Source: a virus | Lineage: Duplodnaviria; Heunggongvirae; Uroviricota; Caudoviricetes | Virus record (IMG/VR): IMGVR_UViG_2585427773_000003 | DNA length: 64,000 bases | Direction: 5' to 3' (one strand) | Shown here: one piece after another, positions 41 through 62,441 of the stretch | Position numbering within the stretch: the first letter of the stretch is position 1 | How the letters are laid out: every line of letters starts with the position of its first letter | Notes under the pieces: model-generated | The model's database searches: none | What the model saw: the letters and a program-made list of their open reading frames with translations, nothing else | What the model was told of the DNA's origin: nothing | Made by a program: the position numbers and the translations under genes

Positions 41-97
41 CCTGCTTCCGTATATATTTAATAAGTTACTTATTATTTATATATATACAGAAGCAGG
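41..97. repeat. 57-bp imperfect palindrome, copy 1
   Basis: 8-bp GC-rich inverted arms cctgcttc/gaagcagg flank an AT-rich core with central AATAAGTtACTTATT; near-identical copies at 32891-32945 and 62387-62441. Confidence 0.9.
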
Positions 98-208
98 CAT
101 AACTTGTCGTCTTAGACGCCCAGAAGCTCTACACTTTGAGCCTGTTAAATTGATTAAAAACTTATGTGTAAAATAGAACGCATTAGTCAGTAGCTAAGAG
201 ATGCAATA

Positions 209-976
209 ATGGACGATTTATCGGTATACGCGAGATCATTGGATAAGGCTAAATACTATGTTTACTGTCTCTATGATACAGAAGACAAGATGAAAAGACC
301 GTTTTACATAGGAAAAGGCAAATCGACTCGTTGTCTCGATCACATCAAGTATCCCGATGACTCTCCCAAATCCATGCGGATCAAAGAACTTTTGGCTAAT
401 AAAAAATTAGGCATAGATATACTTCGTCATGGTATGGATGAAACCACAGCCAAACTTGTTGAGGCGACATGCATCGACCTTATGGGGGTCGGAGAGCTTA
501 CGAATAAGGTACGAGGAAGTGGTTCCATGATGGGCAGAATATCACTGGACGCCTACCATCACTTAGTGCTGCAAGAGGAAACTGAAATTGCTCCTGAGCA
601 CGCCGGTCTTGCCTTCCTGCTAAACAGCACCTACAAGTCAGGAATGTCCGCTCTGGCATTATATGAAGCTACGCGTGGCGTATGGGCAAAGGTTCCAAGA
701 GACGAGAATCTCAAATATGCCTACGCTACATATGGTGGGCTGATAATGGAAGTTTATCGGATTGAATGCTGGGTCAAAGCCGGTTCTCAGCAGTACTTTA
801 CAAGGGATATAGCTCTTGGCCCCGACACAAAACGTTATGAATTTGTTGGCAGAATAGCCGATGAGCATATTAGAAAACTGTATGTAGGCAAATTAATCAA
901 GAAACCACCAAGCTACGGTAGCCCTTTTGTGAAGGTTGGGGTGGTTAGGACTGAACATAGTGTTAGCGCGGCATAA
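209..976 (+). CDS. GIY-YIG nuclease domain protein (homing-endonuclease-like), 255 aa
   Basis: N-terminal YYVYCLYD...PFYIGKGK motif typical of GIY-YIG; C-terminal domain unrecognised. Confidence 0.6.
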   Translation: MDDLSVYARSLDKAKYYVYCLYDTEDKMKRPFYIGKGKSTRCLDHIKYPDDSPKSMRIKELLANKKLGIDILRHGMDETTAKLVEATCIDLMGVGELTNKVRGSGSMMGRISLDAYHHLVLQEETEIAPEHAGLAFLLNSTYKSGMSALALYEATRGVWAKVPRDENLKYAYATYGGLIMEVYRIECWVKAGSQQYFTRDIALGPDTKRYEFVGRIADEHIRKLYVGKLIKKPPSYGSPFVKVGVVRTEHSVSAA

Positions 977-1028
977 AGCTGACACTGTAGTTATGCATTG
1001 GCGCAATGTACGCGCCAATGCATGATTT

Positions 1029-1388
1029 TTAACCTTTTTTCATCAACTCTCGTTTGATTTCATCGGTACGCATCGTGACATCGGCAGCTGTGATCGCCTC
1101 GTTAAGTTTCACGATGTCCTCGATTTCCTGCGGTGACTTCTCTGCCAGATGGAAAATGGCTGCGCGAATCACGTCTGAACGGGTGAATTTCTCGAAGCGA
1201 GGGATGAACTTCATCATCTCCAGCAGTTCGAAGTATTCGTCCTCCAGTGACATTGTGCGGCTTTTAATTTTCTCTTTGCCACGAGTCGGGCGTCCCTGTG
1301 GTCTGACTGGTTGGCGCAAAGGAGTTGTGTTCTTAGCCGGTGCATCAGGCTCTTTGCGCTTTGCTAGGTCACCCATTTTCATGGACAT
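1029..1388 (-). CDS. Small partition protein, ParG-like RHH centromere-binding partner of ParA
   Basis: 119 aa, basic disordered N-terminus then predicted strand-helix-helix; start ATG overlaps parA stop (TAATG coupling). Confidence 0.5.
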   Translation of the reverse strand: MSMKMGDLAKRKEPDAPAKNTTPLRQPVRPQGRPTRGKEKIKSRTMSLEDEYFELLEMMKFIPRFEKFTRSDVIRAAIFHLAEKSPQEIEDIVKLNEAITAADVTMRTDEIKRELMKKG

Positions 1389-2056
1389 TATTCTTCTTCC
1401 TCCAGACTCAACAGATAATCTACAAATTCTTCAAACTCGGCTTCCGCCTTTTTGTCGCGCTCGCTACCGGTCATTTCAAAGATAGAGCGACCAGACTCTT
1501 CCGCATCATCATAGACGTTGCGGTTATATAGATTGACTGGCGCAGACTCGATTCCAAACGTCTCAACAATCTCTTTAGCCGCCAGAATGCGAGACACTTG
1601 TGATGGCAAAGCCGGGCACTGGTTCATGACCGCGCGGACCTTCACTTTATCGTTTACATTGCGAACATTGTCGATAATAGGATCGATGTCACGTAAAGAT
1701 TTCAAATCACGACGCTTAGGACGCAGCGGGATAATGATAACGTCAGCCATCAGCATCGCTTGTCGCTGAATTTCGGAGTCGAAGCCACCAGCATCTACCA
1801 CTACAAACTCAGCTCTACCCTGAAGCGATTTTAGGTGCTTAATGATGTCATCCTGAACGTATGCAAAAGGAATCAGCTCAAGGTCTTCGTTCTGTCGACG
1901 GTCTTCACACCAGCTCGTTGTCGTGCGCTGAATATCTATATCGGTAATATAAACCTTCTTCTTCTTTTTGACTTTCAGGCAAACGGCAATTTGCTGGGCA
2001 ACGGTGGATTTGCCAGGCCCGCCCTTTGTGCCGCCAACCACAAAGATCTTGGTCAT
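1388..2056 (-). CDS. parA: ParA-family partition ATPase (small, type Ib-like)
   Basis: Deviant Walker A GGTKGGPGKST near N-terminus, 222 aa; RBS aaggga upstream. Confidence 0.8.
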   Translation of the reverse strand: MTKIFVVGGTKGGPGKSTVAQQIAVCLKVKKKKKVYITDIDIQRTTTSWCEDRRQNEDLELIPFAYVQDDIIKHLKSLQGRAEFVVVDAGGFDSEIQRQAMLMADVIIIPLRPKRRDLKSLRDIDPIIDNVRNVNDKVKVRAVMNQCPALPSQVSRILAAKEIVETFGIESAPVNLYNRNVYDDAEESGRSIFEMTGSERDKKAEAEFEEFVDYLLSLEEEE

Positions 2057-2374
2057 TGGAGAGTTCCCTTTGCGTATATAATTATCGTCTGAAACAACTT
2101 GTTTTCTTATATGTGATATAGCCTAAATGCCTACGGCTGCGGTGTAAAGGTTAAATGGTAGGTTGTGATTAACAATTGGCAAACATAGCTTGTATTTGTC
2201 TGTTGAAAAAAGTAACAATGACATCTATATTACAAGTACGGTGATATGCCGTACACAATTTGATAATGCACACGTAATGGGCTATAGCCTTTTAAAGTAA
2301 TTTTTGAGTCGAAAACTCAGTTTGAACAGAGGAGATTGATGGCCTTCCTACATCACGGCCATCAGGAGGAATAC

Positions 2375-2644
2375 ATGTCAGCACTAAAAAAGCAGCGCAT
2401 CGATTTGAGATTAACCGATGACGATAAAAGCATCATCGAGGAAGCTGCCGCAATGTCTAACCAGAGCATTACTCAGTTTATGGTTAGCAGTGCATCTGAA
2501 CGTGCCGTGAAAGTTATAGAGCAACACCGTAGACTAGTTCTGAATGAAGAATCCTGGAATCTGGTTATGGACGCTATAAGCAATCCTCCGGCACCGAACG
2601 ACAAGCTGAAACGAGCTGCTGATCGTCTGAAAAGCATGGAGTAG
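2375..2644 (+). CDS. ataR: DUF1778 antitoxin (AtaR/TacA-like)
   Basis: MSALKKQRIDLRLTDDDKS...NEESW motif pattern of DUF1778 antitoxins; RBS aggagga; alternative start at 2339. Confidence 0.75.
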   Translation: MSALKKQRIDLRLTDDDKSIIEEAAAMSNQSITQFMVSSASERAVKVIEQHRRLVLNEESWNLVMDAISNPPAPNDKLKRAADRLKSME

Positions 2645-2651
2645 TTTACTC

Positions 2652-3173
2652 GTGAGCAATACAACGATAGAGATTTTCTCTGGAGAGAAAGATTATGATC
2701 TAAACGGTTTTGATTGCGGCGAAGAGTCACTAAACGCCTTTTTAGCCAACCACTTAAAAAGGCAGCATGAGGGAAAAATTCTTCGTGCTTATGTGCTTTG
2801 CACTCAAGAAGAAAGGCCAAAAGTGTTAGGATATTACACTTTGTCAGGTAGTTGTTTTGAAAAGGAGTCCTTACCTTCAAGAAGCAAACAAAAGAAGGTT
2901 CCTTATCGGAATGTTCCAAGTGTTACTTTGGGTAGGCTGGCTTTGGACAAGTCCCTTCAAGGTCAAGGATTTGGCTCAATGCTTGTAACACATGCAATGC
3001 GCGTTGTGTACAATGCATCTCTTGCTGTAGGCATTCATGGACTTTTCGTTGAGGCGTTAAATGACAAAGCCAAGGCGTTTTATAAAAGTTTAGGCTTTAT
3101 CCAGCTGGTTGGTAACAACGAGCGTTCTTTGTTCTATCCTACAAAATCTATCGAAAAATTGTTCGACGAATAA
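2652..3173 (+). CDS. ataT: GNAT acetyltransferase toxin (AtaT/TacT-like tRNA acetyltransferase)
   Basis: GTG start; YDLNGFDCGEE, LGYYTL, SVTLGRLALDKSLQGQGFG motifs as recalled for AtaT-family toxins; 8 nt after antitoxin stop. Confidence 0.75.
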   Translation: MSNTTIEIFSGEKDYDLNGFDCGEESLNAFLANHLKRQHEGKILRAYVLCTQEERPKVLGYYTLSGSCFEKESLPSRSKQKKVPYRNVPSVTLGRLALDKSLQGQGFGSMLVTHAMRVVYNASLAVGIHGLFVEALNDKAKAFYKSLGFIQLVGNNERSLFYPTKSIEKLFDE

Positions 3174-3176
3174 TGT

Positions 3177-3198
3177 GTTCCCCTCATTTGAGGGGAAC
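3177..3198 (+). terminator. Hairpin after toxin gene (weak terminator)
   Basis: gttcccctc-attt-gaggggaac perfect 9-bp stem; poor T-tract. Confidence 0.35.
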
Positions 3199-3205
3199 TT
3201 CGACA

Positions 3206-3421
3206 TCACCAACCACAAACCCTCTCTCCCATCGTATTGTGAAAAAGGATTTGGCGTTCGGTTTCTTCAGTCATTACATCATTATTGCTGATATAGATAG
3301 GCTCAGCCCCATCGCAGAACAACACGCTGGCTGTTTGTGGTTTAATGACGCACCCACTTATCATACAACTCACGATGAACGGCAGAAGCATCTTTCTGAC
3401 GTATTTTACTGCTCGTCTCAT
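3206..3421 (-). CDS. o-spanin (Rz1-like outer membrane lipoprotein), overlapping i-spanin
   Basis: Signal peptide MRRAVKYVRKMLLPFIVSCMISGC with lipobox ISGC; encoded in alternate frame overlapping 3' end of i-spanin gene. Confidence 0.5.
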   Translation of the reverse strand: MRRAVKYVRKMLLPFIVSCMISGCVIKPQTASVLFCDGAEPIYISNNDVMTEETERQILFHNTMGERVCGW

Positions 3422-3593
3422 TCACCACTTTCACTGTGTTTTGAAGTCGTTTTCTGTCTTCCTGTTTTGCCTTCTCTTCCATTGCTCGTCGCGCCGCATT
3501 CCCGCCCATCGTGTAAGCGCCGACAAGAACGAAAAGAACGGCAGCCAGCGTAATCAAAGCAACTTTTAGCTTTGTCATCAGGCTGCCTAGCAT
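3342..3593 (-). CDS. i-spanin (Rz-like)
   Basis: N-terminal TM helix followed by charged coiled-coil-like segment; directly follows lysin gene (TAAtATG). Confidence 0.5.
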   Translation of the reverse strand: MLGSLMTKLKVALITLAAVLFVLVGAYTMGGNAARRAMEEKAKQEDRKRLQNTVKVVNETSSKIRQKDASAVHRELYDKWVRH

Positions 3594-3594
3594 A

Positions 3595-4287: not shown

Positions 4288-4300
4288 CCTTGATCTCCTG

Positions 4301-4624: not shown

Positions 4625-4690
4625 TATTTCCTCCATGAATCGTCAAATCGGGATGGCGGTTTTATATCATAAAACGCCCACACTTGGTAG

Positions 4691-4702
4691 GTAAGTACTT
4701 AC
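4691..4702. promoter_or_regulatory. Palindrome GTAAGTACTTAC (late-region operator family)
   Basis: Perfect 12-bp palindrome 55-66 bp upstream of holin-like start; same family as sites at 23868, 43437, 63069 and others. Confidence 0.5.
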
Positions 4703-5538: not shown

Positions 5539-5547
5539 TCACCTTGA

Positions 5548-30889: not shown

Positions 30890-32142
30890 CGAGAACCACC
30901 AAGAATAACACGGTTTTTGACTGGATACCTACGATGTACTGGATAGCCCAATGCGTCTGCACTATGCTCAATGCCACCTGTCTTATCCATATCTCGTGTT
31001 CCAGGCTTGTAGATGACTTTTTCCAGTGAATCAATCAAATGCTTGCACTTCGGATCGATATACAGCCGGATATCTCCAGATGCGGACATCAGCATTCGGT
31101 TAACAGCATTAACACGATCCGCAATTGGCGGGTGCTTTTTCGAATAATCGACACGTAAGAATCCCTTCTCTTTGAATATGTCTACGTCAGACTCCCCACG
31201 AGCATGTTGGCGATAAGCACCTGCCGGATCTGGAAATACCGTTACCTGTGATTTCCAGCGCCAGAAGCGTCTCTCAAGCTCATCACAAACTTCTGCCGTG
31301 TTAGAGGAAAAGAGCACCAATTCATCAATTGCCCATAGCTCACCATTTGGCTGAGGTTGCAAAATTACTGAAGACATCGGGTCAATGTTGAAGTCCTGCC
31401 CTACCCATATAGGCAACCGAGGGTTGAACTGAAGCGGTTTTACATGCACGTTACGATCGAACGGGTAGTAAACGCGCCCGGACATGTTCTCAAAGCTGGC
31501 CAGGTACTCCTGAGCGAACGATTTGGGGTCCATATCGTTCTTAGCAGCTTCAATTTCCGCCGTAGGCACAAACGGAGAATCGGCAGTTACAAACTGCCAG
31601 CTCTTCCACTGTCCCTTTCTTTGCAGCTCTACGTTCTGGCCTATAGTCCACAGTTTGTGAAATTCCGAGAAGCCTTTTGGCGTACCAATGATCAGTGCAC
31701 CGCCGCGTGTCGATGAAAGAGTAGGTCGTAACACCTTGTACCAGGTGTCAGCCTTCATATCCTGAAATTCATCAAGCACTACAAAATGCAACGCTACGCC
31801 GCGCAGAGTGTCAGGCTTATCAGCACCTTTGAGGGCGATCTCCGAACCGTTCTTCAACACGATTGTCATCGTGGTGTCGTTCTTTTTCCTAACCCACTTA
31901 CGAGGCAGAACTTCCTGTAGATCGTCCCACAAAATCTGGCGAGCCATCTGGTAAGTAGGAGCGACATACCAGACCCTTTGCTTTTTTTCCTTTGCCGCCG
32001 CACGAATAATAGTGGAGATCGACAACCGGGATTTTCCCCAGCGTCGACCAGCACAAACAACTTTAAATCGATGCGGAGACTGGAAGACTTTCATCTGTCC
32101 AGAATGCAGTTGCACAAGACTGAGCGAGGACGGGATTGCCAT
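30886..32142 (-). CDS. Terminase large subunit
   Basis: Walker A-like CAGRRWGKS, Walker B VLDE, C-terminal nuclease-like region; 418 aa. Confidence 0.8.
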   Translation of the reverse strand: MAIPSSLSLVQLHSGQMKVFQSPHRFKVVCAGRRWGKSRLSISTIIRAAAKEKKQRVWYVAPTYQMARQILWDDLQEVLPRKWVRKKNDTTMTIVLKNGSEIALKGADKPDTLRGVALHFVVLDEFQDMKADTWYKVLRPTLSSTRGGALIIGTPKGFSEFHKLWTIGQNVELQRKGQWKSWQFVTADSPFVPTAEIEAAKNDMDPKSFAQEYLASFENMSGRVYYPFDRNVHVKPLQFNPRLPIWVGQDFNIDPMSSVILQPQPNGELWAIDELVLFSSNTAEVCDELERRFWRWKSQVTVFPDPAGAYRQHARGESDVDIFKEKGFLRVDYSKKHPPIADRVNAVNRMLMSASGDIRLYIDPKCKHLIDSLEKVIYKPGTRDMDKTGGIEHSADALGYPVHRRYPVKNRVILGGSR

Positions 32143-32774
32143 TATTCGTCCTCCCCTTCACTTCCATCATCTGTCGCATCAAATTCGCTTAGAGCTTCTT
32201 CTTCCAACGTCTCAAGCAATTCGTCATCGATGATTTCAGGCTCGTCGTCTTCCTGACGTAATTTCGCCACCTGGGAAGGCGTAAGCTCACCAAATACCAG
32301 GTTCGGAATTTCTTCCTCGTCATTTTCCGCATGATCCATGCCCAATGCTTTGGACGAAACTTCAAAGCATTTTGCAAGGGTATTACTGGCTCTCTGTAAG
32401 CTCTTGAGAGAATCCTCAATCGCCCCTAAAGGCTTACCCTCACGTTTGGCCGTAGTGACTTCGACCATCACCATCTGCCCCAACGCATACGCCCAGCCGT
32501 CATAACGTGTACGACGTTCTTCTATCTTTTCCGCACGGGCTTTAGCGCGAAGCTCTGCGTCAGATTTAAGAGACTCACGAACCATCTTCCCAACAGAGTC
32601 CGCGCCTTTCTCTAATCCTCGCTTTTTGAAATGTCTGGAGAGTGTTTCACGACGAATGCCGTACTCTTCCTCCAGCTTTGAGAGTGTATATTCGCCTGAC
32701 GTCCATTTGGCTTCAGCTTCGGCCCACTCCGCTGGTGTCAGGCGAGTTTTTACCTCGTCTTTTTCGACCGTCAT
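32142..32774 (-). CDS. Terminase small subunit
   Basis: 210 aa, HTH-like N-terminus, acidic C-terminus, start overlaps terL. Confidence 0.6.
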   Translation of the reverse strand: MTVEKDEVKTRLTPAEWAEAEAKWTSGEYTLSKLEEEYGIRRETLSRHFKKRGLEKGADSVGKMVRESLKSDAELRAKARAEKIEERRTRYDGWAYALGQMVMVEVTTAKREGKPLGAIEDSLKSLQRASNTLAKCFEVSSKALGMDHAENDEEEIPNLVFGELTPSQVAKLRQEDDEPEIIDDELLETLEEEALSEFDATDDGSEGEDE

Positions 32775-32890
32775 AGATCCCTCTAAAACACACAGAGCGC
32801 GTCCATGCGCTCTAAAACAACTTGTTTACTGCATCTGCTAACCAACTTGTTTTCTGGGGTGTTTAATTAGGTCTGGCATGTCTTACGAAG

Positions 32891-32945
32891 CCTGCTTCCG
32901 TATATATTTAATAAGTTACTTATTATTTATATATACAGAAGCAGG
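32891..32945. repeat. 55-bp imperfect palindrome, copy 2
   Basis: Near-identical to copy 1; lies 117 bp upstream of terS start. Confidence 0.9.
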
Positions 32946-32969
32946 TCTTTAAATAAGCTCCCAGACCGA

Positions 32970-33236
32970 TTACATCACCAGTAACTTCGCTTTGGCTCGA
33001 CCTAAAGTAGTTAACCCAAGAGTTCGGCGGTGATAGCGATTGTCACTGCGTTGGCGCGTATGCCCTTTCTCCACCAGCCCCTTTTTTATCAGAGCGCGAA
33101 TTGAGAACTGGATACTTTGCTTGGTTGTCTTGTACGGCAAAACTTCAAGCAATTCGTCCAGGTCAAGTAGATGACCTCGCTCATAACCGAGATTGAGCGT
33201 TTTGATGATGTCCTTTTGTTTATCGGTTAACGTCAT
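32970..33236 (-). CDS. Small putative winged-helix DNA-binding protein
   Basis: 88 aa, basic, helix-turn-helix-like segment. Confidence 0.35.
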   Translation of the reverse strand: MTLTDKQKDIIKTLNLGYERGHLLDLDELLEVLPYKTTKQSIQFSIRALIKKGLVEKGHTRQRSDNRYHRRTLGLTTLGRAKAKLLVM

Positions 33237-33245: not shown

Positions 33246-34145
33246 TTATGCCGGTAAAGCAATTTCTAACGGTTTATCCAAAGGTTGTTTGTCGAATGCC
33301 AGCAGTGGCAGCGTGTCAGGCAGTCGACGACCAAAGTCAGGGTTTCGATACACACCATACAACGGAGACGTAAAGCTCAGGTTGTGAATGTCCTTGAGCA
33401 GCTTCACAATGCTGGCCTCGTCCACCAGACTGTCGGCAATGTCCTGAATCGTCGTGCCACGATTCCGCCCAGCTTTTGCCAGGGAACTGTTCTTGTGGTA
33501 GTCCGCCACCAGATCACGCAGTGCACGGCGACGACGAGACTCGCTCATAGCGAACAACTCTTTGACGATCGCCTCGTTATCACCCGGGTCGGAGCGGAAA
33601 TGGCGCTGGAACACACGCAGTGCACTTTCATAGCTCTTCGGTCGCTCAGGGCGGATGAACTTAAACCCTGCTTTCATGGCGAAGGGATTGTATTTGCTCA
33701 TCGATGACTGGATCTCAATGATTGGCCGGTCATGCATCCTGCTAACCAGGTTAATCATTCGATAAGAGACGCCTACGCCACGGTACTGAGTATCCACAAC
33801 TGAGCGGCTGATCACCGCAAAGTTGTTATTCACGTACCGGCCCCAGTACTGGTTAGCCACGGTGGTATTGGTAGTTGGTTTCAACTTAGGAAACATGCGA
33901 TGGCGAGGTGCCAGCAGAAGTTTCGGGTAAGCCATAACCACGACGCCCACCAGACGGTCATCCAGTTCGCAGCGATAGTATGTTGGCGCGAAAGGTTTGC
34001 CGTCTGTTTTGTAGTGAAGCGATTTAAGAGCGTGCCAGTCCTCTACAGTTCCCTTTGTGACAGTCATTCGCTCCAGAAAGTCCAGATGACGCGGAAACTC
34101 TTCAGGGCGGTAGCGTTTGATGATGATATCTGCCATGTCGATCAC
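33246..34145 (-). CDS. GNAT-fold (acetyltransferase-like) domain protein
   Basis: Motif QYRGVGVS (R/Q-x-x-G-x-G/A) preceded by hydrophobic strand, NPFAMKAGFKFI downstream; about 120 aa C-terminal extension. Confidence 0.45.
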   Translation of the reverse strand: MIDMADIIIKRYRPEEFPRHLDFLERMTVTKGTVEDWHALKSLHYKTDGKPFAPTYYRCELDDRLVGVVVMAYPKLLLAPRHRMFPKLKPTTNTTVANQYWGRYVNNNFAVISRSVVDTQYRGVGVSYRMINLVSRMHDRPIIEIQSSMSKYNPFAMKAGFKFIRPERPKSYESALRVFQRHFRSDPGDNEAIVKELFAMSESRRRRALRDLVADYHKNSSLAKAGRNRGTTIQDIADSLVDEASIVKLLKDIHNLSFTSPLYGVYRNPDFGRRLPDTLPLLAFDKQPLDKPLEIALPA

Positions 34146-34396
34146 CTGCGCTCGATATTGGCATTGATGAAATCCAGGCGAAGAGACTCCATCGCCCCTA
34201 CCATGACATACGGGCGCCCGCCGTTATGCCAGCAATCAAGAACACTGCCGTCGTTGTTGATCATCAACAGCGCCAGGCTCTGGCTTTTTCCTTCTCTGGC
34301 GTGCTGAAGTGCTTCTTCCAGCAGGCGGATGACTTCCACGTTGTTGTTATCAGTCTCTTTCGATGGCTTCAGCTCTACGATCTTCAAATCAGGCAT
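34142..34396 (-). CDS. Hypothetical protein
   Basis: 84 aa ORF with overlapping start/stop coupling to neighbours. Confidence 0.4.
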   Translation of the reverse strand: MPDLKIVELKPSKETDNNNVEVIRLLEEALQHAREGKSQSLALLMINNDGSVLDCWHNGGRPYVMVGAMESLRLDFINANIERR

Positions 34397-35027
34397 ATTC
34401 CACCTTCACGCGTTCTTTGTAGTGCTTGGTGATCTGCATATCCGGGCGCAGCGCGTTCTTCAGGTCTTCGTGAGTCGTCGCCACCATTACCGTCGCACCA
34501 ACCTTTCGAGCGGCACGCTGGAGGTTAGATGCCACAACCTGAGCGGTTACACGGTCGAGAACAGCGCCGAACTCGTCAGCAGCCCACACTTTAGCGCCTG
34601 ACTCAATCAGTTTGGCAATCTTGAGACGATATTTCTGACCGTCTGACATTTCAGAAGGCTTGCGAACAAACAGATATGCATCGTTCAGACCAGCCATAGA
34701 TAACAACCCAAGCGCATCACTGGTAGTTTTGCCCAGTTGGTCAATGACGTTAACCTCATTATCGAAGGTAAAATCATCGATGGAGGCCACAGATAGCCCT
34801 TCATCCTTCATCTGGTGTTGCAGCTCGCGCAGCACAACGGATTTGCCGGAACCGGATTGGCCGGTAATGTACACCACATCGCCCTGCTTCACTTCCAGCT
34901 CCAGATTGTCGTAAAGCGTCCACTCTTTTTCGTCCAGGCCAAGCCCGAACGACTCAGCGATTTCCAACGTGCGCGTGGTTTTATTTACGCGTGTCTGAAA
35001 CGATACGTTGATGATGTATTTGCTCAT
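34389..35027 (-). CDS. Compact ABC-type ATPase
   Basis: Walker A GQSGSGKS, ABC signature LSDGQKYRL, Walker B VWAADEFGAVLD, H-loop ATTHE; 212 aa. Confidence 0.7.
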   Translation of the reverse strand: MSKYIINVSFQTRVNKTTRTLEIAESFGLGLDEKEWTLYDNLELEVKQGDVVYITGQSGSGKSVVLRELQHQMKDEGLSVASIDDFTFDNEVNVIDQLGKTTSDALGLLSMAGLNDAYLFVRKPSEMSDGQKYRLKIAKLIESGAKVWAADEFGAVLDRVTAQVVASNLQRAARKVGATVMVATTHEDLKNALRPDMQITKHYKERVKVEYA

Positions 35028-35692
35028 GCAGCCATCTCCCCGGAAGAGATCTTCTCCGCATATGCCACAAATGCGTCTACCCCGCTTTCTCCCGTCATTT
35101 CTTCCATGTGGGCAAGCAAATCACCAACAACAATGGCAGAGCCAGCAGGGAGCGTTTTAAAGCCCAATACGTCGACAACACGTACTTCTTCCGCTGCAAC
35201 TTCACGACTGATCTCGGTGTGTTCATCCTTCTGTCGTTTAGTTTCTTCGCCAAGATCGATAACTAGCGAGTCGGTGTCCATTTCTTCTGTCATACTGCCA
35301 ACGAGAACATTCAACTCACGCTCTTCAAAGCCGAAAACCTCGATATCGTCCAGAACAAGCGACTCAAGCTCTTTCTGTAGCTTAATTGCATCGTAATCAA
35401 TGCTGGCAAGTCGGTTATCTTCAAGGCGCTTCGCACGAACCTCGTCATCACTGAGATCATCGCGAACAATAACCGGTACGCGCTCAAGTCCAGCAAAAAT
35501 TGCAGCCTCACGGCGGCCGTGGCCAGTAATAATTACGTCGTTCTTATCGACCGTAATTGGCTGGTCAAATCCGCGCTTTTTAATGGCTGCGGCTAGATCT
35601 CGGATCTGCTGTTCATCATGCTTTTTGGCATTCATCTCATAGGGAATAAGATCTGCCGGGTCGCGATATACGATTTCAAACTTTTTGGTCAT
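35024..35692 (-). CDS. ParB-like nuclease domain protein
   Basis: ParB N-terminal motif ITGHGRREAAIFAGLERVPVIV. Confidence 0.55.
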   Translation of the reverse strand: MTKKFEIVYRDPADLIPYEMNAKKHDEQQIRDLAAAIKKRGFDQPITVDKNDVIITGHGRREAAIFAGLERVPVIVRDDLSDDEVRAKRLEDNRLASIDYDAIKLQKELESLVLDDIEVFGFEERELNVLVGSMTEEMDTDSLVIDLGEETKRQKDEHTEISREVAAEEVRVVDVLGFKTLPAGSAIVVGDLLAHMEEMTGESGVDAFVAYAEKISSGEMAA

Positions 35693-36372
35693 TACATACG
35701 CTCCTTGTAGTAGTCGACCAGCCATACCAGAGCCTCACCAGCGTTCTCCATTTCATTACCGGTGTTAATAGCCTGCTCTTTGATGATGTTTTTTATGGTT
35801 TCTGCAACACGATCTGACGCATCGAAAGTTACTTTGAAGCGCATGGTCTGATGTTCCGCACCCACACGTTCGGTTTTCTCTCGTTTGTCGGTATCGACAG
35901 GCTCATCACTACCACGAGACAACGCCTCCAGTGCTTCAAGGTCGATTGCCGCCTCTTTTGCTAAAACCATCGAGATTTCGTCGTCATACGGGGCGATTTC
36001 AGACAGTTGATAGTCAAGTTCTGACTGAATTTCTTCAATGAAGCGTTGCAATGCGATTTGGTCGTCTTCACCGTATCGCTCGTTGTCCACCAGTGACATC
36101 TGTTTAGCTACGACATCGCTAATTTTGCCCACAGAAAGCACCGGAACCGTTGAAATTCCTTGCTCAATAGCAGCACGCCAGCGATGTTCGCCGCCGAGGA
36201 TTTCAAAAAATCCATCTTCAAGTTCACGAGCCAAAATTGGCTTAAAAAAGCCCAATTTTTCGATAGAACCTTTCAGTTTTTCAAAATTCTGCGCACCAAC
36301 CGAATTGGTGTTCCAGGTATTCGGGCGAAGGTTGGCAACATCAACCTGCAAAATCGTGATTTTTACATCCAT
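35692..36372 (-). CDS. ParB-like nuclease domain protein
   Basis: ParB N-terminal motif ILGGEHRWRAAIEQGISTVPVL; ATG at 36372 preferred over GTG at 36390. Confidence 0.55.
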   Translation of the reverse strand: MDVKITILQVDVANLRPNTWNTNSVGAQNFEKLKGSIEKLGFFKPILARELEDGFFEILGGEHRWRAAIEQGISTVPVLSVGKISDVVAKQMSLVDNERYGEDDQIALQRFIEEIQSELDYQLSEIAPYDDEISMVLAKEAAIDLEALEALSRGSDEPVDTDKREKTERVGAEHQTMRFKVTFDASDRVAETIKNIIKEQAINTGNEMENAGEALVWLVDYYKERM

Positions 36373-49665: not shown

Positions 49666-50766
49666 ATGAGCGAGTCCAAATCGCCGGATGCCCTGAGAGC
49701 AATGGTAGCCGGTACGCTGGCTAATTTTCAGCACCCAACCCTGAAACACAACCTGACTACGCTTAAAGCGTTACACCATGTTGCGTTGATGGATGACACA
49801 CTGCATGTCGAACTAATCATGCCTTTCGTGTGGAATAAGCCTTTTGAAGACCTGAAAGAGCAATGTAGTGGTGATCTGCTCCGTATCACTGGCGCAAAGG
49901 CTATTGACTGGAAGCTGTCGTACAACATTGCCACGCTTAAGCGCGTCAAAAACCAACCAGGCATTAATGGCGTTAAGAACATTATCGCCGTCAGCTCAGG
50001 CAAGGGCGGCGTGGGTAAATCCTCCACGGCGGTAAACCTGGCACTGGCGTTGGCTGCTGAAGGTGCGAAAGTTGGTATTTTGGATGCCGATATCTATGGT
50101 CCATCAATTCCAACCATGCTGGGCGCGGAAAACCAACGTCCAACCTCACCTGACGGTACTCACATGGCACCTATCATGTCTCATGGCCTGGCAACCAACT
50201 CTATTGGTTATCTGGTCACCGACGACAATGCAATGGTGTGGCGTGGACCGATGGCCAGCAAGGCGCTGATGCAGATGTTGCAGGAAACTCTATGGCCTGA
50301 TCTGGACTATCTCGTTCTCGATATGCCGCCGGGCACTGGTGATATTCAGTTGACGCTGGCGCAGAACATTCCTGTAACTGGTGCGGTTGTGGTAACTACG
50401 CCGCAAGACATCGCGCTGATCGATGCGAAGAAAGGCATTGTGATGTTCGAAAAAGTCGAAGTGCCGGTACTGGGTATCGTCGAAAACATGAGTGTGCATA
50501 TTTGCAGTAACTGCGGTCATCACGAGCCAATTTTTGGCACCGGTGGCGCACAGAAACTGGCCGAGAAATACAACACGCAGTTGTTAGGCCAAATGCCACT
50601 TCATATCTCTCTTCGTGAAGATCTGGATAACGGAACACCAACCGTTATTAGTCGTCCAGATAGCGAATTTACGGCTATTTATCGTGACCTCGCAGATCGC
50701 GTTGCCGCCCAAATGTATTGGCAAGGTGAAGTAATACCTGGCGAAATCGCATTCCGCGCAGTGTGA
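49666..50766 (+). CDS. apbC: Fe-S cluster carrier ATPase ApbC/Mrp
   Basis: 366 aa; P-loop SGKGGVGKSS, CxxC motif CSNCGH; divergent from metG as in Enterobacteriaceae chromosomes. Confidence 0.95.
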   Translation: MSESKSPDALRAMVAGTLANFQHPTLKHNLTTLKALHHVALMDDTLHVELIMPFVWNKPFEDLKEQCSGDLLRITGAKAIDWKLSYNIATLKRVKNQPGINGVKNIIAVSSGKGGVGKSSTAVNLALALAAEGAKVGILDADIYGPSIPTMLGAENQRPTSPDGTHMAPIMSHGLATNSIGYLVTDDNAMVWRGPMASKALMQMLQETLWPDLDYLVLDMPPGTGDIQLTLAQNIPVTGAVVVTTPQDIALIDAKKGIVMFEKVEVPVLGIVENMSVHICSNCGHHEPIFGTGGAQKLAEKYNTQLLGQMPLHISLREDLDNGTPTVISRPDSEFTAIYRDLADRVAAQMYWQGEVIPGEIAFRAV

Positions 50767-51193: not shown

Positions 51194-51209
51194 AATACTC
51201 GCCTCTTAA

Positions 51210-58309: not shown

Positions 58310-58311
58310 AA

Positions 58312-58593
58312 TTATCCCCAGTATGTGTATATGTAAGAACCAAGCCCCGTATATAAATTTGACCAACTAACCGTATTTCCATTAATAGTAACTGTTGGAA
58401 CAGGTAAATTAATGTAGTTGTCGTTGTTAAGAGGCATCAATGACCACACGGCATGTAGCGATTTACCCGGTGGCGGATTGGAGTACGTCTTAGAGCCTGA
58501 TGACGCAGTAAATCGATCAAGAAAAAAAATAGGAGTAAGGAAGCCAGTAACGTTAATTCCTTTATTGTTGTAAATCCCTGTACCGTATGCCAT
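58312..58593 (-). CDS. Hypothetical protein (AT-rich cassette gene 1)
   Basis: 93 aa, G/N/T/Y-rich; stop followed 2 nt later by next ATG. Confidence 0.35.
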   Translation of the reverse strand: MAYGTGIYNNKGINVTGFLTPIFFLDRFTASSGSKTYSNPPPGKSLHAVWSLMPLNNDNYINLPVPTVTINGNTVSWSNLYTGLGSYIYTYWG

Positions 58594-58648
58594 TTTTCAT
58601 CCTTGTTTTTTATCAACACAATATGGCCGATCATGCGGCCATATCAGA

Positions 58649-59218
58649 TCAATTAGAGCTTTGAAAGGCTTTGTGTGGCTGTGTTGCGAGGTTATGTCGA
58701 TGGCTTAACTCACGCATCATGTCTTCAAGCCGACTCTTTGTGTCGTCGAGTTGGTCGGCCATTGCTCCCAAAAGCTGACGAACGGCCATCGGATCATCGC
58801 TGTTTAGTGATGGCATTTTATAACCCGCCTGAGAAGACATAAGATTGAACGCAGACATCAACATCGTTAGAGAGGATTTAAGCCCAGCAATTTCACGATC
58901 TTTGCTGGCAATAATCGCCTCACTCTTGTTAGTGTCATCAGTTCGTTGAGTCTCGCTCACCATATCCAAAGTCGCCTGCAACTTATCAGCGCGCTCTTTT
59001 TCAGCAAGATAATGAACACCGAAATGATGTGCTAAAGCTACAACCTGAGTTGGCTCTTCAAAGGTGGACTCAAAATTAAGTGCTGTAACCACTCTCTCAA
59101 ATATGGAAACGTCTTCTATTCCTCGAAGAATGGCTAACATTTTGACCAGTTCATTAGCATCCATTTCTTCGAATAAGGCGTTTTGTTCATCAGCTATCGC
59201 TTTGCATTTCTTGCACAT
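58649..59218 (-). CDS. Hypothetical protein
   Basis: 189 aa; operator-like motif 59237-59250 upstream. Confidence 0.45.
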   Translation of the reverse strand: MCKKCKAIADEQNALFEEMDANELVKMLAILRGIEDVSIFERVVTALNFESTFEEPTQVVALAHHFGVHYLAEKERADKLQATLDMVSETQRTDDTNKSEAIIASKDREIAGLKSSLTMLMSAFNLMSSQAGYKMPSLNSDDPMAVRQLLGAMADQLDDTKSRLEDMMRELSHRHNLATQPHKAFQSSN

Positions 59219-59515
59219 GTGTTTTTCCTAATGCTTAAACAAGTTGTTTTCTTATTGGCTTTATTGTGATGTGGCATAAAAGGGGAGCAAGCTAAACGTA
59301 AAGGTGCAAACTCTCTATTTCGGTCAACGAAACACAAGGGCCATTTGGCCCTTGTCATTAACACGTTGCTTTACGGACTAGCGGATAAGCGAAGTAGATC
59401 GCCAGACCAATGAGGACGCCATCAGAAATGACAGACATCATCTTTCCCGTAAAATCCACCAACACCGCCATCACCAGAAGAGCAATGACGATCACAAGCC
59501 GGAATCTCTCAAGCA

Positions 59516-59941
59516 TTAGAGATAAGCATCCAGTGACAACTGAAGCGCCTGGGCGATCTTTTTAAGTGCCTGCTCTTCTTGTTCGCCAATGCCGTCCTGA
59601 TCGGCAATATCAAGGCACAGACACAGAACATCGACCGCCTCTGGAGTACCCGCAATATCAGACAGCTCACGAATAGCCTGTGCATTAGCAGAACGAGGGG
59701 ACGCTTCGTAACGAGCACGGATATTGGCGCTCATTTGGGCAATTTCACCAGCAAACGGAGAAAACGCAGGCAGAGCTGCAATTGTCTTCTCAAGAATGGC
59801 AATTTCTTTTGCGTCACATGTGCCGTCGGCATAGGAGATCATGTACGCGCCCCACACGGTGGCCTCAACCGCATCACGGTTCTCCATTTTTTTGACTTCG
59901 ATAACAGCTTTACGAGTTTTCTTTTTGAAGAAACCTAACAT
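59516..59941 (-). CDS. TerB-like domain protein
   Basis: ISYADGTCDAKEIAILEKTIA resembles TerB-type helical motif; operator-like motif 59965-59980 upstream. Confidence 0.35.
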   Translation of the reverse strand: MLGFFKKKTRKAVIEVKKMENRDAVEATVWGAYMISYADGTCDAKEIAILEKTIAALPAFSPFAGEIAQMSANIRARYEASPRSANAQAIRELSDIAGTPEAVDVLCLCLDIADQDGIGEQEEQALKKIAQALQLSLDAYL

Positions 59942-60034
59942 GTGTTTTCCTTTTGTTATTTGTCAAAACAAGTTGTTTTATAGTTTCATAAATTGCTTAC
60001 GCAAAGATGGTCAATGCATATGCACTAACAGCCG

Positions 60035-60223
60035 TCAGAAATAACCAAGTACCGAACCGACTGGAAAAACAAAAATCCCAACTACACGAGCCAAGGTCAT
60101 GCCAGCCTGAAACTGGAGATCGCCAGAGCAAACAAGTTTTATAATGTTCGATACCCAACCGGCGGCCATGAGGGCCAGAATTGCCAGCCAAATTTTTCCA
60201 AAGTGATTTGAAAACAAGTTCAT
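60035..60223 (-). CDS. Small membrane protein
   Basis: 62 aa with two hydrophobic segments. Confidence 0.4.
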   Translation of the reverse strand: MNLFSNHFGKIWLAILALMAAGWVSNIIKLVCSGDLQFQAGMTLARVVGIFVFPVGSVLGYF

Positions 60224-60438
60224 ACAACCGCCTTAGTCACAACATGATCCTGAGTAACTGGATGAAATTGAGGTATCGCATCCACCGTCATCCCATCCAG
60301 AGTGACAGGACGCTCTACTGGAGTGGTGGTAATTGTCGTCGACGGAGGTGTGGTGATGGATGAATCCGGCATCAAAAGGCTCTGGCCGGCTGGAACAGCT
60401 ACCGTCGCCAGTGAAACTATAATGAGAACGTAGGCCAT
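60220..60438 (-). CDS. Small secreted protein
   Basis: Signal-peptide-like MAYVLIIVSLATVAVPAG; T/P-rich. Confidence 0.35.
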   Translation of the reverse strand: MAYVLIIVSLATVAVPAGQSLLMPDSSITTPPSTTITTTPVERPVTLDGMTVDAIPQFHPVTQDHVVTKAVV

Positions 60439-60727
60439 TGGTTTCAGCCTCTTTCTTTGAAAATTTTCCATTCGAACTGTCCTTGTTGTTTTTCTCCTTC
60501 ACTAAAGGCCGTGCATTTTTCGCTTGGTGTGAAGAACCAGAGGTAACAATCGCCCCCACGTTCGCAACAACTGACGCTTGCTTATCTAAACGTTCATTCA
60601 GCAACCGAACGGTAGTCTCCAGTTCATCAAGACGTGACAGAACACGACCGCTAAATAATTCGGCCAAAATTTGACGTAGTGAACGAGGACGTTTAGTTGC
60701 AGAAGTGAAATAGGTTTGACGTGCCAT
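60233..60727 (-). CDS. Hypothetical protein, 3' extent ambiguous (overlaps 60220-60438 in another frame)
   Basis: N-terminal 60 aa look protein-like, C-terminal half is S/G/C-rich low complexity suggesting frame error or true end near 60540. Confidence 0.25.
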   Translation of the reverse strand: MARQTYFTSATKRPRSLRQILAELFSGRVLSRLDELETTVRLLNERLDKQASVVANVGAIVTSGSSHQAKNARPLVKEKNNKDSSNGKFSKKEAETNGLRSHYSFTGDGSCSSRPEPFDAGFIHHHTSVDDNYHHSSRASCHSGWDDGGCDTSISSSYSGSCCD

Positions 60728-60875
60728 GTGGACTCCATCCAGTGTCAGAAAGAGTTGCGGCTGGCGATTGCCAGCCGCCTTTCTCGTTCCATCCTGGAAC
60801 TGTGTCTTACCGACACATTGTCATCCTGACGCCGATAAGATACATGATTTAAAATGATAGGTAAACACTTACTTA

Positions 60876-61469
60876 CTATTTGTTATAAACAAAACCAATA
60901 TCTTTCTTGTGAGGCATATCTGCTGCTGAAAAAGCTGCGATCTTCGCGAGTCGATCACATATTTCATTTTCACGATGCCCGGCGTGACCTTTAACCCACT
61001 TCCAGCGAACATTATGTCGACTTGCGGCCTCATCCAGACGCTTCCACAGATCAACATTCTTTACCGGTTTTTTGTCAGAAGTCATCCATCCATTGCGTTT
61101 CCACCATTTCATCCACTGTGTCATGCCGTTTTTCAGATACTGGCTATCAGAGTGCAAAATAACGTTGCATGGATATTTCAAACGCTCCAGCCCGATAAGT
61201 GCCCCCATCATCTCCATGCGGTTATTGGTGGTGCTATGAAAACCATCTGAGAACTCGCGTTCCTCACCACGATACTGGAGAACGATACCGTAACCGCCCG
61301 GGCCACCCGGATTTTTAAGGCAAGAGCCATCACTAAAGATTTTCACGGTTTTGAGCTGGGGATTGAACTCTACGACAGGCGTTGTGGGATTGGTGCGGGG
61401 AGAATTTTTGTTTTTGTCTTTTTTGCGAGTTTTTGCTTGCGATCGGGCTGGTGTCTTCGTCGTCATATA
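60876..61469 (-). CDS. rnhA: Ribonuclease HI with basic N-terminal extension
   Basis: DGSC, NNRME, DSQY, KGHAGH.EN..CD motifs with catalytic D/E/D/H/D in place. Confidence 0.8.
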
Positions 61470-61559
61470 AACTCCTGAATCAAGCGCCGCGCCGATTTTT
61501 CCTCGCGCGTGCGCACACGCGTGCGTGTTAATAATTATTAAAATAAACAAATTACTTCC

Positions 61560-62047
61560 CAGAACAGGTTTTTATAAACCTGAACTGAACGAACGAAGTG
61601 AGTGAAGTTCACCTCGAACGAAGTGAGAGGTTGTCTTTTCAGGTAATACTCTCCCAGGGAGGTGAGTATAAAATTCCTCACCAACCTGGTCGTTTCATAA
61701 CCTGAAAAGCTATGGTCTAAGTCTACTGCCAGCTTAGACTTGGGAAGTTATGGATGACAGCACCCCAGAACCGAGATCTTCCCACACTTTATGAAGGGGA
61801 GTACTGGATTCAACCTCTCGAAACACCCCAGACTCGACAATCATAAAGTGACCCTTGTCTCTGCTCACTTTGGTTCCCCCTTCCCCGACACCTATACGGC
61901 ACCGGTTCTACGCTGGTAGTGAGCTTTTTTAAACCTGACGCCAGTGACGCTTACCCCCACCCATCAGGTCGAGCCTCCAGTCTACGACTGGAAACTATCA
62001 GATCTTAGCACTTACAATTCACTTTATGAATAGTTTGTACTTATCTA
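61560..62047. other. Structured non-coding region (candidate ncRNA or origin)
   Basis: About 490 bp without plausible ORF; multiple hairpins (caggttt..aaacctg, ggtgag..ctcacc, tctaag..cttaga) and direct repeat cgaacgaagtgag x2. Confidence 0.4.
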
Positions 62048-62278
62048 TCATTGTGATTGATTATTTTCTCGACCATGTAGTTGAACATTCAAGGCAAACA
62101 CCTCATTGATCAACTCACCTAAAAGCTGTTCAACAAGTTCGCGATGCTCGCCAAGATGTAAGCACTTAATTGCCCACTCGTACAAGTTGAAAGCCTGCTC
62201 ACGATCTTTCATCATTTCACGAGCCTGGGCCAGAAAATCGCTCTCTACGAGCGCAACGACATTAGTCGGGTATGACAT
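62048..62278 (-). CDS. Hypothetical small protein
   Basis: ORF starting MSYPTNVVAL. Confidence 0.4.
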   Translation of the reverse strand: MSYPTNVVALVESDFLAQAREMMKDREQAFNLYEWAIKCLHLGEHRELVEQLLGELINEVFALNVQLHGRENNQSQ

Positions 62279-62386
62279 GTTGGTTTCCTTAAAGTGGTTC
62301 ATAAAATCGATTTTAAAGCGTCTGGGAAGGGGTTCTAGTGGATTCTGTAGTGGTGTTCAGGTCTGGGAGTCTCTGATATAAAACAG

Positions 62387-62441
62387 CCTGCTTCCGTATA
62401 TTAATAATTAATATGTAGTTATTTATATATACAGAAGCAGG
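62387..62441. repeat. 55-bp imperfect palindrome, copy 3 (variant core)
   Basis: Same cctgcttccgtata...atatacagaagcagg arms as copies 1 and 2, with altered central AT-rich core. Confidence 0.85.

Follow-up and report, generated by a model that had tools for sequence, protein, structure and literature searches.

Three palindromes dispersed over an E. coli SSU5-like phage-plasmid appear to be copies of one cis-acting DNA site specific to this family of elements. The preferred reading, held at a probability of about 0.3, is that they are protein-bound unwinding sites, namely lytic origins similar in build to the herpesvirus oriS, and that two copies also serve as terminators. This tentative reading is based on the presence of three copies at conserved sites, which are not a host repeat and share their arms across paralogous sites, on a variable AT-rich centre with the least stable duplex and inverted boxes on its flanks, and on the fixed distance of ~115 nt between one site and the helicase/primase module, with variable DNA on the other side. 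The additional role as terminators is suggested by the strong folding of the coding-strand hairpins and by a T-tract at most variants of two sites.

Three palindromes at conserved module boundaries

The window (the whole stretch of 64,000 nucleotides analysed) is part of a phage-plasmid of ~107 kb with exactly three copies of the palindrome, and no further copy was found in the rest of the element. Copy 2 is designated site A, copy 1 site B, and copy 3 site C. The palindromes and their surroundings are as follows.

18-23, plus strand: box TTCTGG of copy 1 (coding-strand CCAGAA, downstream side)
30-40, minus strand: T-tract TCTTTTAAAAG of copy 1, directly 3' of the coding-strand hairpin; intrinsic-terminator signature
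41-97: palindrome copy 1 (site B), 57 bp; arms CCTGCTTCCGTATAT and ATATACAGAAGCAGG, AT-only centre
119-125, plus strand: box CCCAGAA of copy 1, inverted relative to the box at 18-23
209-976, plus strand: GIY-YIG ORF, 255 aa, between copy 1 and the ParG-like gene
1029-1388, minus strand: ParG-like gene, 119 aa
1388-2056, minus strand: parA (MipZ/ParA ATPase, 222 aa)
32142-32774, minus strand: terS (HTH small terminase), first gene after copy 2; candidate binder
32852-32858 and 32871-32876, plus strand: boxes TTCTGGG and GTCTGG of copy 2
32891-32945: palindrome copy 2 (site A), 55 bp, between the 88-aa winged-helix gene and terS
32960-32966, plus strand: box CCCAGAC of copy 2 (coding-strand GGTCTGGGAG, 12 nt ahead of the palindrome)
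32970-33236, minus strand: gene of an 88-aa MarR-like winged-helix protein, always directly upstream of site A; candidate binder
62320-62326 and 62361-62367, plus strand: boxes GTCTGGG of copy 3
62378-62386, minus strand: T-tract CTGTTTTAT of copy 3, directly 3' of the coding-strand hairpin
62387-62441: palindrome copy 3 (site C), 55 bp; arms of copies 1 and 2, divergent AT-rich centre
62455-62460 and 62523-62529, plus strand: boxes CCAGAA and CCCAGAC on the other side of copy 3
62465-63058, minus strand: Dam-family N6-adenine methylase gene, stop codon 24 nt before copy 3

The pattern CCTGCTTC-N30-60-GAAGCAGG gave three matches against 0.00 expected from shuffles, and the 15-nt arm gave six arm matches against 0.08 expected. 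The palindromes were found where the initial annotation had placed them, with a chance expectation of zero, and all three are intergenic as it had described. Copy 2, reported as just upstream of terS, ends 116 nt before this gene, and copy 1 does lie downstream of parA/parG, but with the 255-aa GIY-YIG ORF in between. The description of the copies as near-identical applies to the arms and not to the centre of copy 3: copies 1 and 2 are identical except for one TA unit, whereas copy 3 shares with them only its first 15 and last 22 nt and has a different centre without the AATAAGTtACTTATT core. Moreover, 55-57 bp is the correct length of the palindromes, but the elements are larger, each having inverted TCTGG/CCAGA boxes outside. 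These boxes had gone unnoticed in the initial annotation, as had the terminator-like T-tracts of copies 1 and 3 and the cuts of the SSU5 and Cyrano database records within copy 2.

Three copies each were also detected in SSU5, PhiR41_1, the Klebsiella element pJN2-26, and a Kluyvera plasmid contig (108.7 kb). In the annotated relatives (SSU5, PhiR41_1, and pJN2-26), the copies are located upstream of terS, between parA/parG and the helicase/primase module that follows, and past the end of the Dam methylase gene, and the same three gene-module boundaries carry the palindrome in every SSU5-like phage-plasmid examined. In 45 distinct IMG/VR variants, site A was likewise found upstream of terS. 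In the window, site B has the par/cargo region on one side and the replication module on the other, the start of this module being just beyond the left end of the window; across 41 distinct site-B variants, its distance to the 246-aa gene heading the helicase/primase module is constant at ~115 nt, and on its other side at least 19 unrelated sequences were found, among them a gene for a GIY-YIG nuclease and DUF2971 genes. When 185,579 species genomes were scanned with a degenerate pattern, matches were confined to SSU5-like contigs, with none in host chromosomes. Copy number and position are thus conserved among relatives, and the palindrome is not the common host chromosomal repeat that the initial annotation had allowed for. 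No description of it was found in the searched literature.

Arms, flanking boxes and AT-rich centre

The arm sequence differs in distant lineages, with matching changes in the two arms of a site and in its paralogues. Sites A and C of Xenorhabdus have the common arm TATGGGAGCAAGGC, sites B and C of Morganella the common arm TAT(G/C)GGAGCACGGC, and sites A and B of Raoultella, located on a single contig, the common arm ATAT(C/G)GGAAGCAGGT. Relative to the SSU5 type, identical transversions (GTA to CAT) are found in both arms. This concerted change points to a shared sequence-specific factor. Furthermore, some distant sites have a single surviving arm or everted arms, and this loss of pairing suggests a constraint on sequence and not only on pairing; arm position 9 varies independently between the two arms. 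Structure prediction assigned the 88-aa protein to the MarR-type winged-helix fold (pLDDT 82; Foldseek probability 1.0 to MepR/MarR), and its gene is syntenic with site A in all lineages examined. No co-variation with the arms was found for the recognition helices of this protein and of TerS, the two nearest DNA-binding proteins, so neither could be identified as the binder. The predicted DNA-reading strand of the ParG-like protein does differ between lineages with differing arms.

The TCTGG/CCAGA boxes are inverted and repeated on the flanks of each site, and most of the variable left flanks of site B retain a TCTGG box. TCTGGGAG is rare, with only 2-6 occurrences per genome, two of them adjoining palindromes. 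The centre varies in length from 21 to ~100 bp with an AT content above ~85% (own count), a property to be expected in an unwinding element and difficult to reconcile with an operator of fixed geometry. In the E. coli element, the three sites rank 1-3 for lowest duplex stability among all 30- and 40-bp windows (-26.4 at the sites versus a mean of -41.4 kcal/mol, sd 3.3), site B being the least stable, and they rank 1, 2, and 4 in SSU5 and 2, 3, and 4 in pJN2-26, although the sites were first noticed as AT-rich and their low stability partly follows from that.

Transcript ends, operators, centromeres and packaging

Applying a criterion of at least 5 T in 9 nt, a coding-strand T-tract was detected in 89% of 38 distinct variants of site B and 67% of 27 of site C, on that strand only, but in 0% of 30 of site A. 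Sites B and C begin 12-30 nt past the stop codon of the gene that precedes them on the coding strand, and coding-strand cargo ORFs end 0-10 nt ahead of the hairpin. The hairpins fold more strongly on the coding strand (-28 to -34 kcal/mol) than on the antisense strand (-23 to -28 kcal/mol), and most arm mismatches would still allow U-G pairing on the coding strand (42 T·G versus 14 C·A among distinct variants, own tally). In one distant lineage, site C is without one arm and is followed by a canonical GC-rich terminator. All of this favours palindromes acting primarily at the RNA level, as long AU-rich hairpins with a GC-rich base that would end or process co-directional transcripts at module boundaries. 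They would serve as intrinsic terminators, insulators, or RNase III sites and might, for instance, prevent transcription of parA/parG in lysogens from running on into the lytic replication genes. At sites B and C, termination is the simpler explanation of the conserved T-tract and of the position ~25-30 nt past a stop codon; as an account of all three palindromes it is possible but doubtful. Site A, besides having no such T-tract, has a separate canonical GC hairpin and T-run 100 nt further on, right before terS, and there is no reason for terminators 30 kb apart to keep identical lineage-specific arms at three sites. In addition, several distant sites have arms that are unable to pair or ~100 nt apart, position 9 varies independently, and no stem-like co-variation was detected between the flanking inverted boxes. 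The palindromes resemble Rho-independent terminators in being intergenic hairpins with a GC-rich base that closely follow a stop codon and, in two of the three copies, have a T-tract, and T7 RNase III hairpins in being paralogous, sequence-similar, and placed between co-directional genes. They differ from both in their 26-bp, mostly A-T stem, in the copy without a T-tract, and in arms that are conserved and co-evolve between copies and that some relatives keep while losing pairing.

It is unlikely that the palindromes are operators through which a phage transcription factor, such as the MarR-like 88-aa protein encoded beside site A, gates three downstream modules (late genes, replication genes, and RNase H region). 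Each site lies just before the first gene of a module, the concerted arm change would fit a common binder, and the fold and synteny of this protein agree with the reading, but its recognition helix is almost invariant although the arms change, no sigma-70-like promoter was found in or adjoining the palindromes, and an arm spacing of 21 to ~100 bp is hard to reconcile with a single dimer. Moreover, a different dispersed 13-bp palindrome, AAACAAnTTGTTT, occupies the parA promoter and already resembles a promoter-proximal operator set. Its location also bears on the reading emphasised in the initial annotation, namely dispersed centromeres on which the small ParA and the ParG-like ribbon-helix-helix protein would act, arranged like the SopB sites scattered over N15 or the three sites bound by omega on pSM19035. 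Dispersed centromeres in few copies per replicon occur in N15 and pSM19035, low-copy phage/plasmid replicons with one site beside the par operon, and the few copies around the present circular replicon, the 12-30 nt between the end of the parA/parG operon and site B in minimal relatives, and the lineage differences in the ParG-like protein agree with this. However, type Ib centromere-binding proteins normally bind and autoregulate upstream of parA, where no arm-like sequence was found here, and the sites of N15 and pSM19035 are 16-bp palindromes or heptad arrays that also occur at the par promoter, in contrast to a 55-bp palindrome with a variable AT-rich centre, which is unlike the short-repeat arrays of ribbon-helix-helix partition proteins. 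Since cargo also inserts on the par side of site B, between parG and the palindrome, while the distance to the replication module is fixed, a centromere is weakened to an improbable explanation. The initial annotation had listed centromere-like sites, late-operon control sites, and packaging or replication signals without choosing among them, and the general idea behind these options, a dispersed cis-acting site recognised by a protein, is supported.

Copy 2 could alternatively be the packaging start (pac, less likely cos) for TerS, with copies 1 and 3 as extra or pseudo-pac sites, but this is quite improbable. It is the conserved element separating the upstream operon from terS in all lineages, and, as in SPP1, where the pacL/pacC/pacR boxes are repeated on both sides of an AT-rich stretch, boxes surround its AT-rich stretch just upstream of terS. 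The linear GenBank record of virion-derived SSU5 starts and ends inside copy 2, the cut dividing the 55 bp into 37 and 18, and the Cyrano record, probably re-oriented to match SSU5, is cut one base from there. Unlike the single site expected from SPP1 pac or lambda cos, three sites with identical flanking architecture are present, TerS HTH does not co-vary with the arms, and the T4/Terminase_6-type TerL with an SPP1-like portal argues for headful packaging and not for cohesive ends. Breaks within or close to sites B and C also occur in isolate short-read contigs (loci L187, L198, and L325), so the SSU5 ends may be an assembly or numbering artefact. The protelomerase target telRL of N15 is likewise a nested palindrome (~56 bp) with further inverted repeats outside, but the relatives PhiR41_1, pJN2-26, and CMS-2020a are deposited as circular, the three copies here are internal, and no protelomerase is annotated in the gene tables of PhiR41_1, SSU5, pJN2-26, and pMT1. 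Finally, the unrelated left flanks of site B would suit footprints of recombination or mobile elements (MITE-like repeats or module-junction sequences mediating cargo exchange), which is very improbable given only three copies at orthologous positions across genera, no target-site duplications, absence from host chromosomes, and a constant module order between genomes (PhiR41_1, SSU5, and pJN2-26); the TCTGG box kept in most variable left flanks also indicates that the junction is not at the palindrome edge.

A putative origin resembling herpesvirus oriS

The preferred reading as lytic origins finds its closest likeness in oriS/oriL of herpes simplex virus, which similarly comprise a palindrome of tens of bp with an AT-rich unwinding centre, inverted protein-binding boxes outside, a possible hairpin or cruciform, and ~3 copies per genome; archaeal oriC likewise has inverted ORB boxes around an AT-rich unwinding element. 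The present virus is of a different type and has no UL9 or Orc1 homologue, initiation at its palindromes is inferred, and two copies additionally bear terminator T-tracts. Against the origin reading, the cumulative GC skew runs monotonically, without an inflection at any of the sites, replisome genes adjoin only site B, and three near-identical origins are unusual for a phage.

In the proposed mechanism, a phage-encoded sequence-specific protein would read the palindrome, whose GC-rich arms would clamp the most easily unwound DNA of the genome. This putative initiator-type protein would bind the arms and the TCTGG/CCAGA boxes, supercoiling would melt the AT-only centre or extrude it as a cruciform, and the phage's own DnaB-like helicase, primase, and Pol III replisome would be loaded at the melted centre. 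Copies 1 and 3, when transcribed, should also serve as intrinsic terminators, closing the par operon and the Dam operon against the module that follows. As such, the palindrome of the SSU5-like phage-plasmids is probably a so far undescribed control site recognised by a protein, and possibly a replication origin.

Location, conservation and architecture of the palindromes

The window comes from an E. coli phage-plasmid of the SSU5 type and has 98% identity to PhiR41_1 and 88% identity to Salmonella phage SSU5, and its terS region was 100% identical to 'phage CMS-2020a' and several plasmids. In PLSDB, 788 plasmid records matched the terS-region query, among them entries from Klebsiella, Escherichia, Enterobacter, Yersinia, and Salmonella. 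Phage-plasmids of this type occur commonly in clinical E. coli, Klebsiella, Salmonella, and Enterobacter, carry resistance genes, and as a group take in the backbone of Yersinia pestis pMT1. Most genes of the window lie on its - strand, hereafter the coding strand. Three palindromes, with GC-rich arms around an AT-rich centre, are located as follows:

41-97, 57 bp: copy 1 (site B), downstream of the partition operon parA/parG and before a 246-aa gene that heads a DnaB-like helicase/primase module
32891-32945, 55 bp: copy 2 (site A), between an 88-aa gene and terS
62387-62441, 55 bp: copy 3 (site C), 24 nt past the Dam methylase gene

These coordinates agree with the initial annotation, as does the intergenic location of all three copies, and neighbouring copies are separated by about 30 kb. 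The clamp pattern matched three times in the window, for an expectation of 0.00, and there were six matches to the 15-nt arm where 0.08 were expected. The copies had been described as near-identical, which holds for copies 1 and 2, differing by one TA unit, but not for the centre of copy 3; this copy has the first 15 and last 22 nt in common with the others around a different AT-rich centre. The ~107-kb element outside the window contained zero additional copies. A solitary arm-like sequence, AGCCTGCTCACGTATA, 14/16 identical to the arm, was observed at 62777-62792 within the Dam gene, 392 nt from copy 3, and is probably due to chance.

Conservation in relatives, on which the significance of the repeats had been made to depend, was confirmed: PhiR41_1, SSU5, and Klebsiella pJN2-26 have exactly three copies at the same sites, including the position of site A between the 88-aa gene and terS, a 108.7-kb Kluyvera contig likewise has three, and IMG/VR yielded dozens of distinct variants per site. 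The possibility of a common host repeat was addressed by a degenerate pattern scan of one genome per species (185,579 species), in which the palindrome family was never found in a chromosome, thereby ruling out a host repetitive extragenic element or MITE. BLAST of the palindrome against complete E. coli genomes gave no matches, probably an effect of the low-complexity filter. The matches were SSU5-like contigs from Kluyvera (twice), Buttiauxella, Y. pestis pMT1, and two MAG contigs, the latter probably mis-binned; other matches were unrelated and not AT-rich. In pMT1, site A is the sole palindrome kept because other regions have been deleted, and this plasmid is too recently derived to be informative.

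Among 68 distinct variants of the SSU5 group, arm positions 1-4, 7, 10, and 11 were invariant, with the exception of a G·G at position 10 in one lineage, positions 12-14 were almost invariant, and positions 5, 6, 8, and 9 were variable. The centre in this group is AT-only and partly palindromic, with (TA)n slippage, giving a total length of 51-57 bp. Each palindrome is flanked by a left box, G/T-TCTGG-G/C-AG, about 12 nt ahead, and a right box, CTCCCAGAC, 12-27 nt past it, often with extra CCAGA boxes downstream; TCTGGGAG occurs just 2-6 times per genome, two of these beside palindromes. The left and right boxes showed no stem-like co-variation. Within the SSU5 group, base-pair covariation between the arms was also weak, as position 9 varied independently between them and only three rare pairs were fully compensated.

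In the 107-kb element, no 30- or 40-bp window had a less stable duplex than the three palindrome sites (-26.4 kcal/mol versus a mean of -41.4), which ranked 1, 2, and 4 for instability in SSU5 and 2, 3, and 4 in pJN2-26. The palindromes are three copies of a symmetric site, placed at module boundaries, in which GC-rich arms enclose the DNA of the genome that melts most easily. A LexA box was rejected from the sequence, given that CTGTATAT...ATATACAG in the arms are spaced ~25 bp too widely for CTGT-N8-ACAG and that position 9 is variable. No Rfam family matched the palindromes at gathering thresholds, only spurious AT-rich miRNA-like matches with E above 0.08 being returned, and no sigma-70 promoter was found in or beside them.

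Concerted change of the arms in distant relatives

Distant relatives, with 53-63% TerS identity, still had a palindrome or a remnant of one at every retrievable site, but with different arms. Within one lineage, the paralogous sites bear a common, lineage-specific arm: TATGGGAGCAAGGC at sites A and C of Xenorhabdus szentirmaii, TAT(G/C)GGAGCACGGC at sites B and C of Morganella psychrotolerans, and ATAT(C/G)GGAAGCAGGT at sites A and B of one Raoultella contig. In a Klebsiella lineage, an asymmetric arm variant was common to one site A and one site C, possibly from different genomes. Compared with the SSU5 type, identical transversions (GTA to CAT) were present in both arms. Searching PLSDB with the distant-lineage loci gave zero matches, and an exact 14-mer scan with the Xenorhabdus arm returned random matches only. 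The centres of distant relatives reach 31, 49, and ~100 bp, and at some sites the 3' arm alone is left or the arms are everted, with folding no better than that of shuffled sequences. Such loss of pairing while the arm sequence is kept, together with the concerted arms, speaks against a purely structural hairpin. The concerted change, as far as sequence comparison can tell, favours a sequence-specific reader common to the sites, or else ongoing gene conversion under a common constraint, and we infer that recognition by a protein is the common denominator of the copies. That the palindromes are a recombination footprint appears the least probable explanation of all.

Neighbouring genes and alternative roles

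Besides terS, the following features of the window adjoin the palindromes or bear on the roles considered for them:

209-976, + strand: 255-aa ORF with a LEM-3-like GIY-YIG nuclease domain (PF22945), orientated opposite to its neighbours, beside copy 1
1029-2056, - strand: parA (PF09140/PF13614) and a 119-aa ParG-like gene
32793-32814, - strand: GC-rich hairpin GAGCGCATGGACGCGCTC followed by TGTGTGTTTTAG, 20 nt ahead of the terS start codon
33246-35725, - strand: conserved operon directly upstream of copy 2 and terS
49666-50766, + strand: gene for a 366-aa MinD/Mrp-like ATPase, on the strand opposite to its neighbours

The GIY-YIG ORF is cargo. The interval from parG to site B is a cargo hotspot, occupied by at least 19 unrelated sequences across lineages, some of them carrying DUF2971 proteins or unknown genes; minimal lineages have a gap of 12-30 nt between parG and the palindrome. 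The distance from site B to the 246-aa gene is constant; the encoded protein is all-helical, and fold comparison found no significant structural neighbour.

An RNA-level terminator or insulator is a doubtful explanation, albeit the most credible of the alternatives. RNA of the coding strand folds into stable hairpins with a GC-rich base (-28.1, -33.6, and -30.1 kcal/mol; z-scores of -6 to -7.8), stronger than those of the opposite strand, sites B and C lie a short distance past a stop codon, and a T-tract directly follows the hairpin in 89% and 67% of their distinct variants, respectively. Furthermore, since the par operon is needed in lysogeny and the replication genes are lytic, a terminator between them makes functional sense. 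However, the T-tract is absent from all 30 variants of site A, a simple terminator scanner called none of the three palindromes, and terminators need structure only, with no common sequence, but these arms are conserved and change in concert. Termination is thus likely a second function of copies 1 and 3 and cannot be the property common to all three sites. The separate hairpin and T-run ahead of terS are kept in relatives from E. coli, Salmonella, and Klebsiella; they may protect the late operon as a terminator or attenuator, and in that case control by antitermination would be suggested.

A role of the palindromes as operators is unlikely. The 88-aa protein encoded beside site A is a MarR-like winged helix, but its recognition helix, like that of TerS, is almost invariant across lineages that differ in their arms and shows no co-variation with them. 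All lineages examined, pMT1 among them, have the operon at 33246-35725, whose products are two ParB-N-domain proteins, an ABC-type ATPase, a small protein, a 299-aa ATPase/acetyltransferase-like protein, and this 88-aa protein.

Ranked just behind the operators, and equally hard to favour, is a dispersed centromere of the type Ib parC/parH or N15-like kind. The suggestion of a centromere retains its basis in that the sites are in cis with a par operon, which site B directly follows in minimal relatives, but it is weakened at the parA promoter. In type Ib systems, the centromere-binding protein normally autoregulates via the same repeats at the parA promoter, yet a search allowing up to 3 mismatches found no arm-like sequence elsewhere in the element, that promoter included. 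The region upstream of parA instead bears an unrelated dispersed 13-bp palindrome, AAACAAnTTGTTT, which occurs 13 times in the window against 0.44 expected:

Sites of the 13-bp palindrome AAACAAnTTGTTT in the window (positions)
2092, 32815, 32840, 42176, 42940, 43843, 44327
44704, 47327, 47378, 54697, 59237, 59966

One of these sites precedes the start of parA by ~35 nt, and the interval from palindrome 2 to terS contains two. Judged by its layout, which is reminiscent of the KorB OB sites on RK2, the set looks like the operators of a global regulator, and AAACAAnTTGTTT is a better candidate target of the ParG-like or ParB-like proteins than the 55-bp palindromes. The 366-aa MinD/Mrp-like ATPase could be a second partition-type ATPase; its Cyrano homologue was reported to be expressed in the lysogen (PMC9928086).

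A packaging (pac) site is improbable. Copy 2 adjoins terS, and the linear SSU5 record has its cut within site A, between ACTTATTA and AATATATACGGAAGCAGG, with Cyrano cut one base away; the SSU5 cut could be a packaging cut, an ambiguous observation. On the other hand, a single cos or pac site would be expected, and here two further copies of the same architecture lie ~30 kb away; isolate contigs likewise end inside or beside sites B and C. The Cyrano paper contains no terminus mapping, and the literature searched contained no paper on SSU5 termini. Contigs with ends inside or ≤60 nt from palindromes are the short-read IMG/VR contigs L187, L198, L325, and L330 of related elements. Contig ends at palindromes indicate that the repeats break short-read assemblies, and the palindromes probably set the 'ends' of deposited genomes, which may be arbitrary. 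TerL is of the T4/Terminase_6 type, with a Thermus phage TerL as its nearest solved relative, and this type together with the SPP1-like portal favours headful packaging. On the basis of annotation, a protelomerase target (telRL) is disfavoured: the records of PhiR41_1, pJN2-26, and CMS-2020a were deposited as circular, and the gene tables for PhiR41_1, SSU5, pJN2-26, and pMT1 list no protelomerase.

A candidate lytic origin and its implications

The explanation ranked first, tentatively and with a probability of roughly 0.3, is by analogy that the palindromes are lytic origins or replisome-loading sites. The closest architecture is that of HSV oriS/oriL and archaeal oriC, in which inverted boxes surround an AT-rich unwinding element present in several copies. 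The easily unwound AT-rich segment of an origin is represented here by the least stable windows of the element, and the lineage-specific arms and TCTGG/CCAGA boxes are candidate initiator boxes, although a search for the initiator identified none. Cumulative GC skew was monotonic through the three sites, with no strand-composition switch; this is a weak test, uninformative for origins or termini because nearly all genes lie on one strand. In addition, a non-coding region of ~500 bp (61551-62047), between the gene at 60876-61550 and an 84-aa gene, contains several CCCCAGA(A/C) boxes and inverted repeats, and its Klebsiella equivalent upstream of the RNase HI gene is likewise rich in TCTGG/CCAGA boxes. 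This region could be regulatory or could itself serve as an origin.

A reading that seems very improbable, below even a packaging site, is that the palindromes are cruciform or ssDNA-hairpin sites cut by phage structure-specific nucleases on induction, launching recombination-dependent replication and concatemers for headful packaging. Among the element's products are Mre11/Rad50-like (SbcCD/gp46-47-type) exonuclease subunits, a UvsW-like helicase, and a RecA-like recombinase, and such cuts would turn the circular plasmid prophage into recombinogenic ends. If true, such a mechanism would represent a lysogeny-to-lysis switch of a new kind, acting at the level of DNA structure.

Irrespective of function, the palindrome is a family-specific cis-element with no previous description in the literature searched. 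It is the strongest candidate so far for at least one among the lytic origin, packaging site, and centromere of SSU5-like phage-plasmids, providing a defined 55-bp experimental target. Should the sites prove to be lytic origins, they would represent a palindromic multi-origin layout of the herpesvirus or archaeal type in a bacteriophage.
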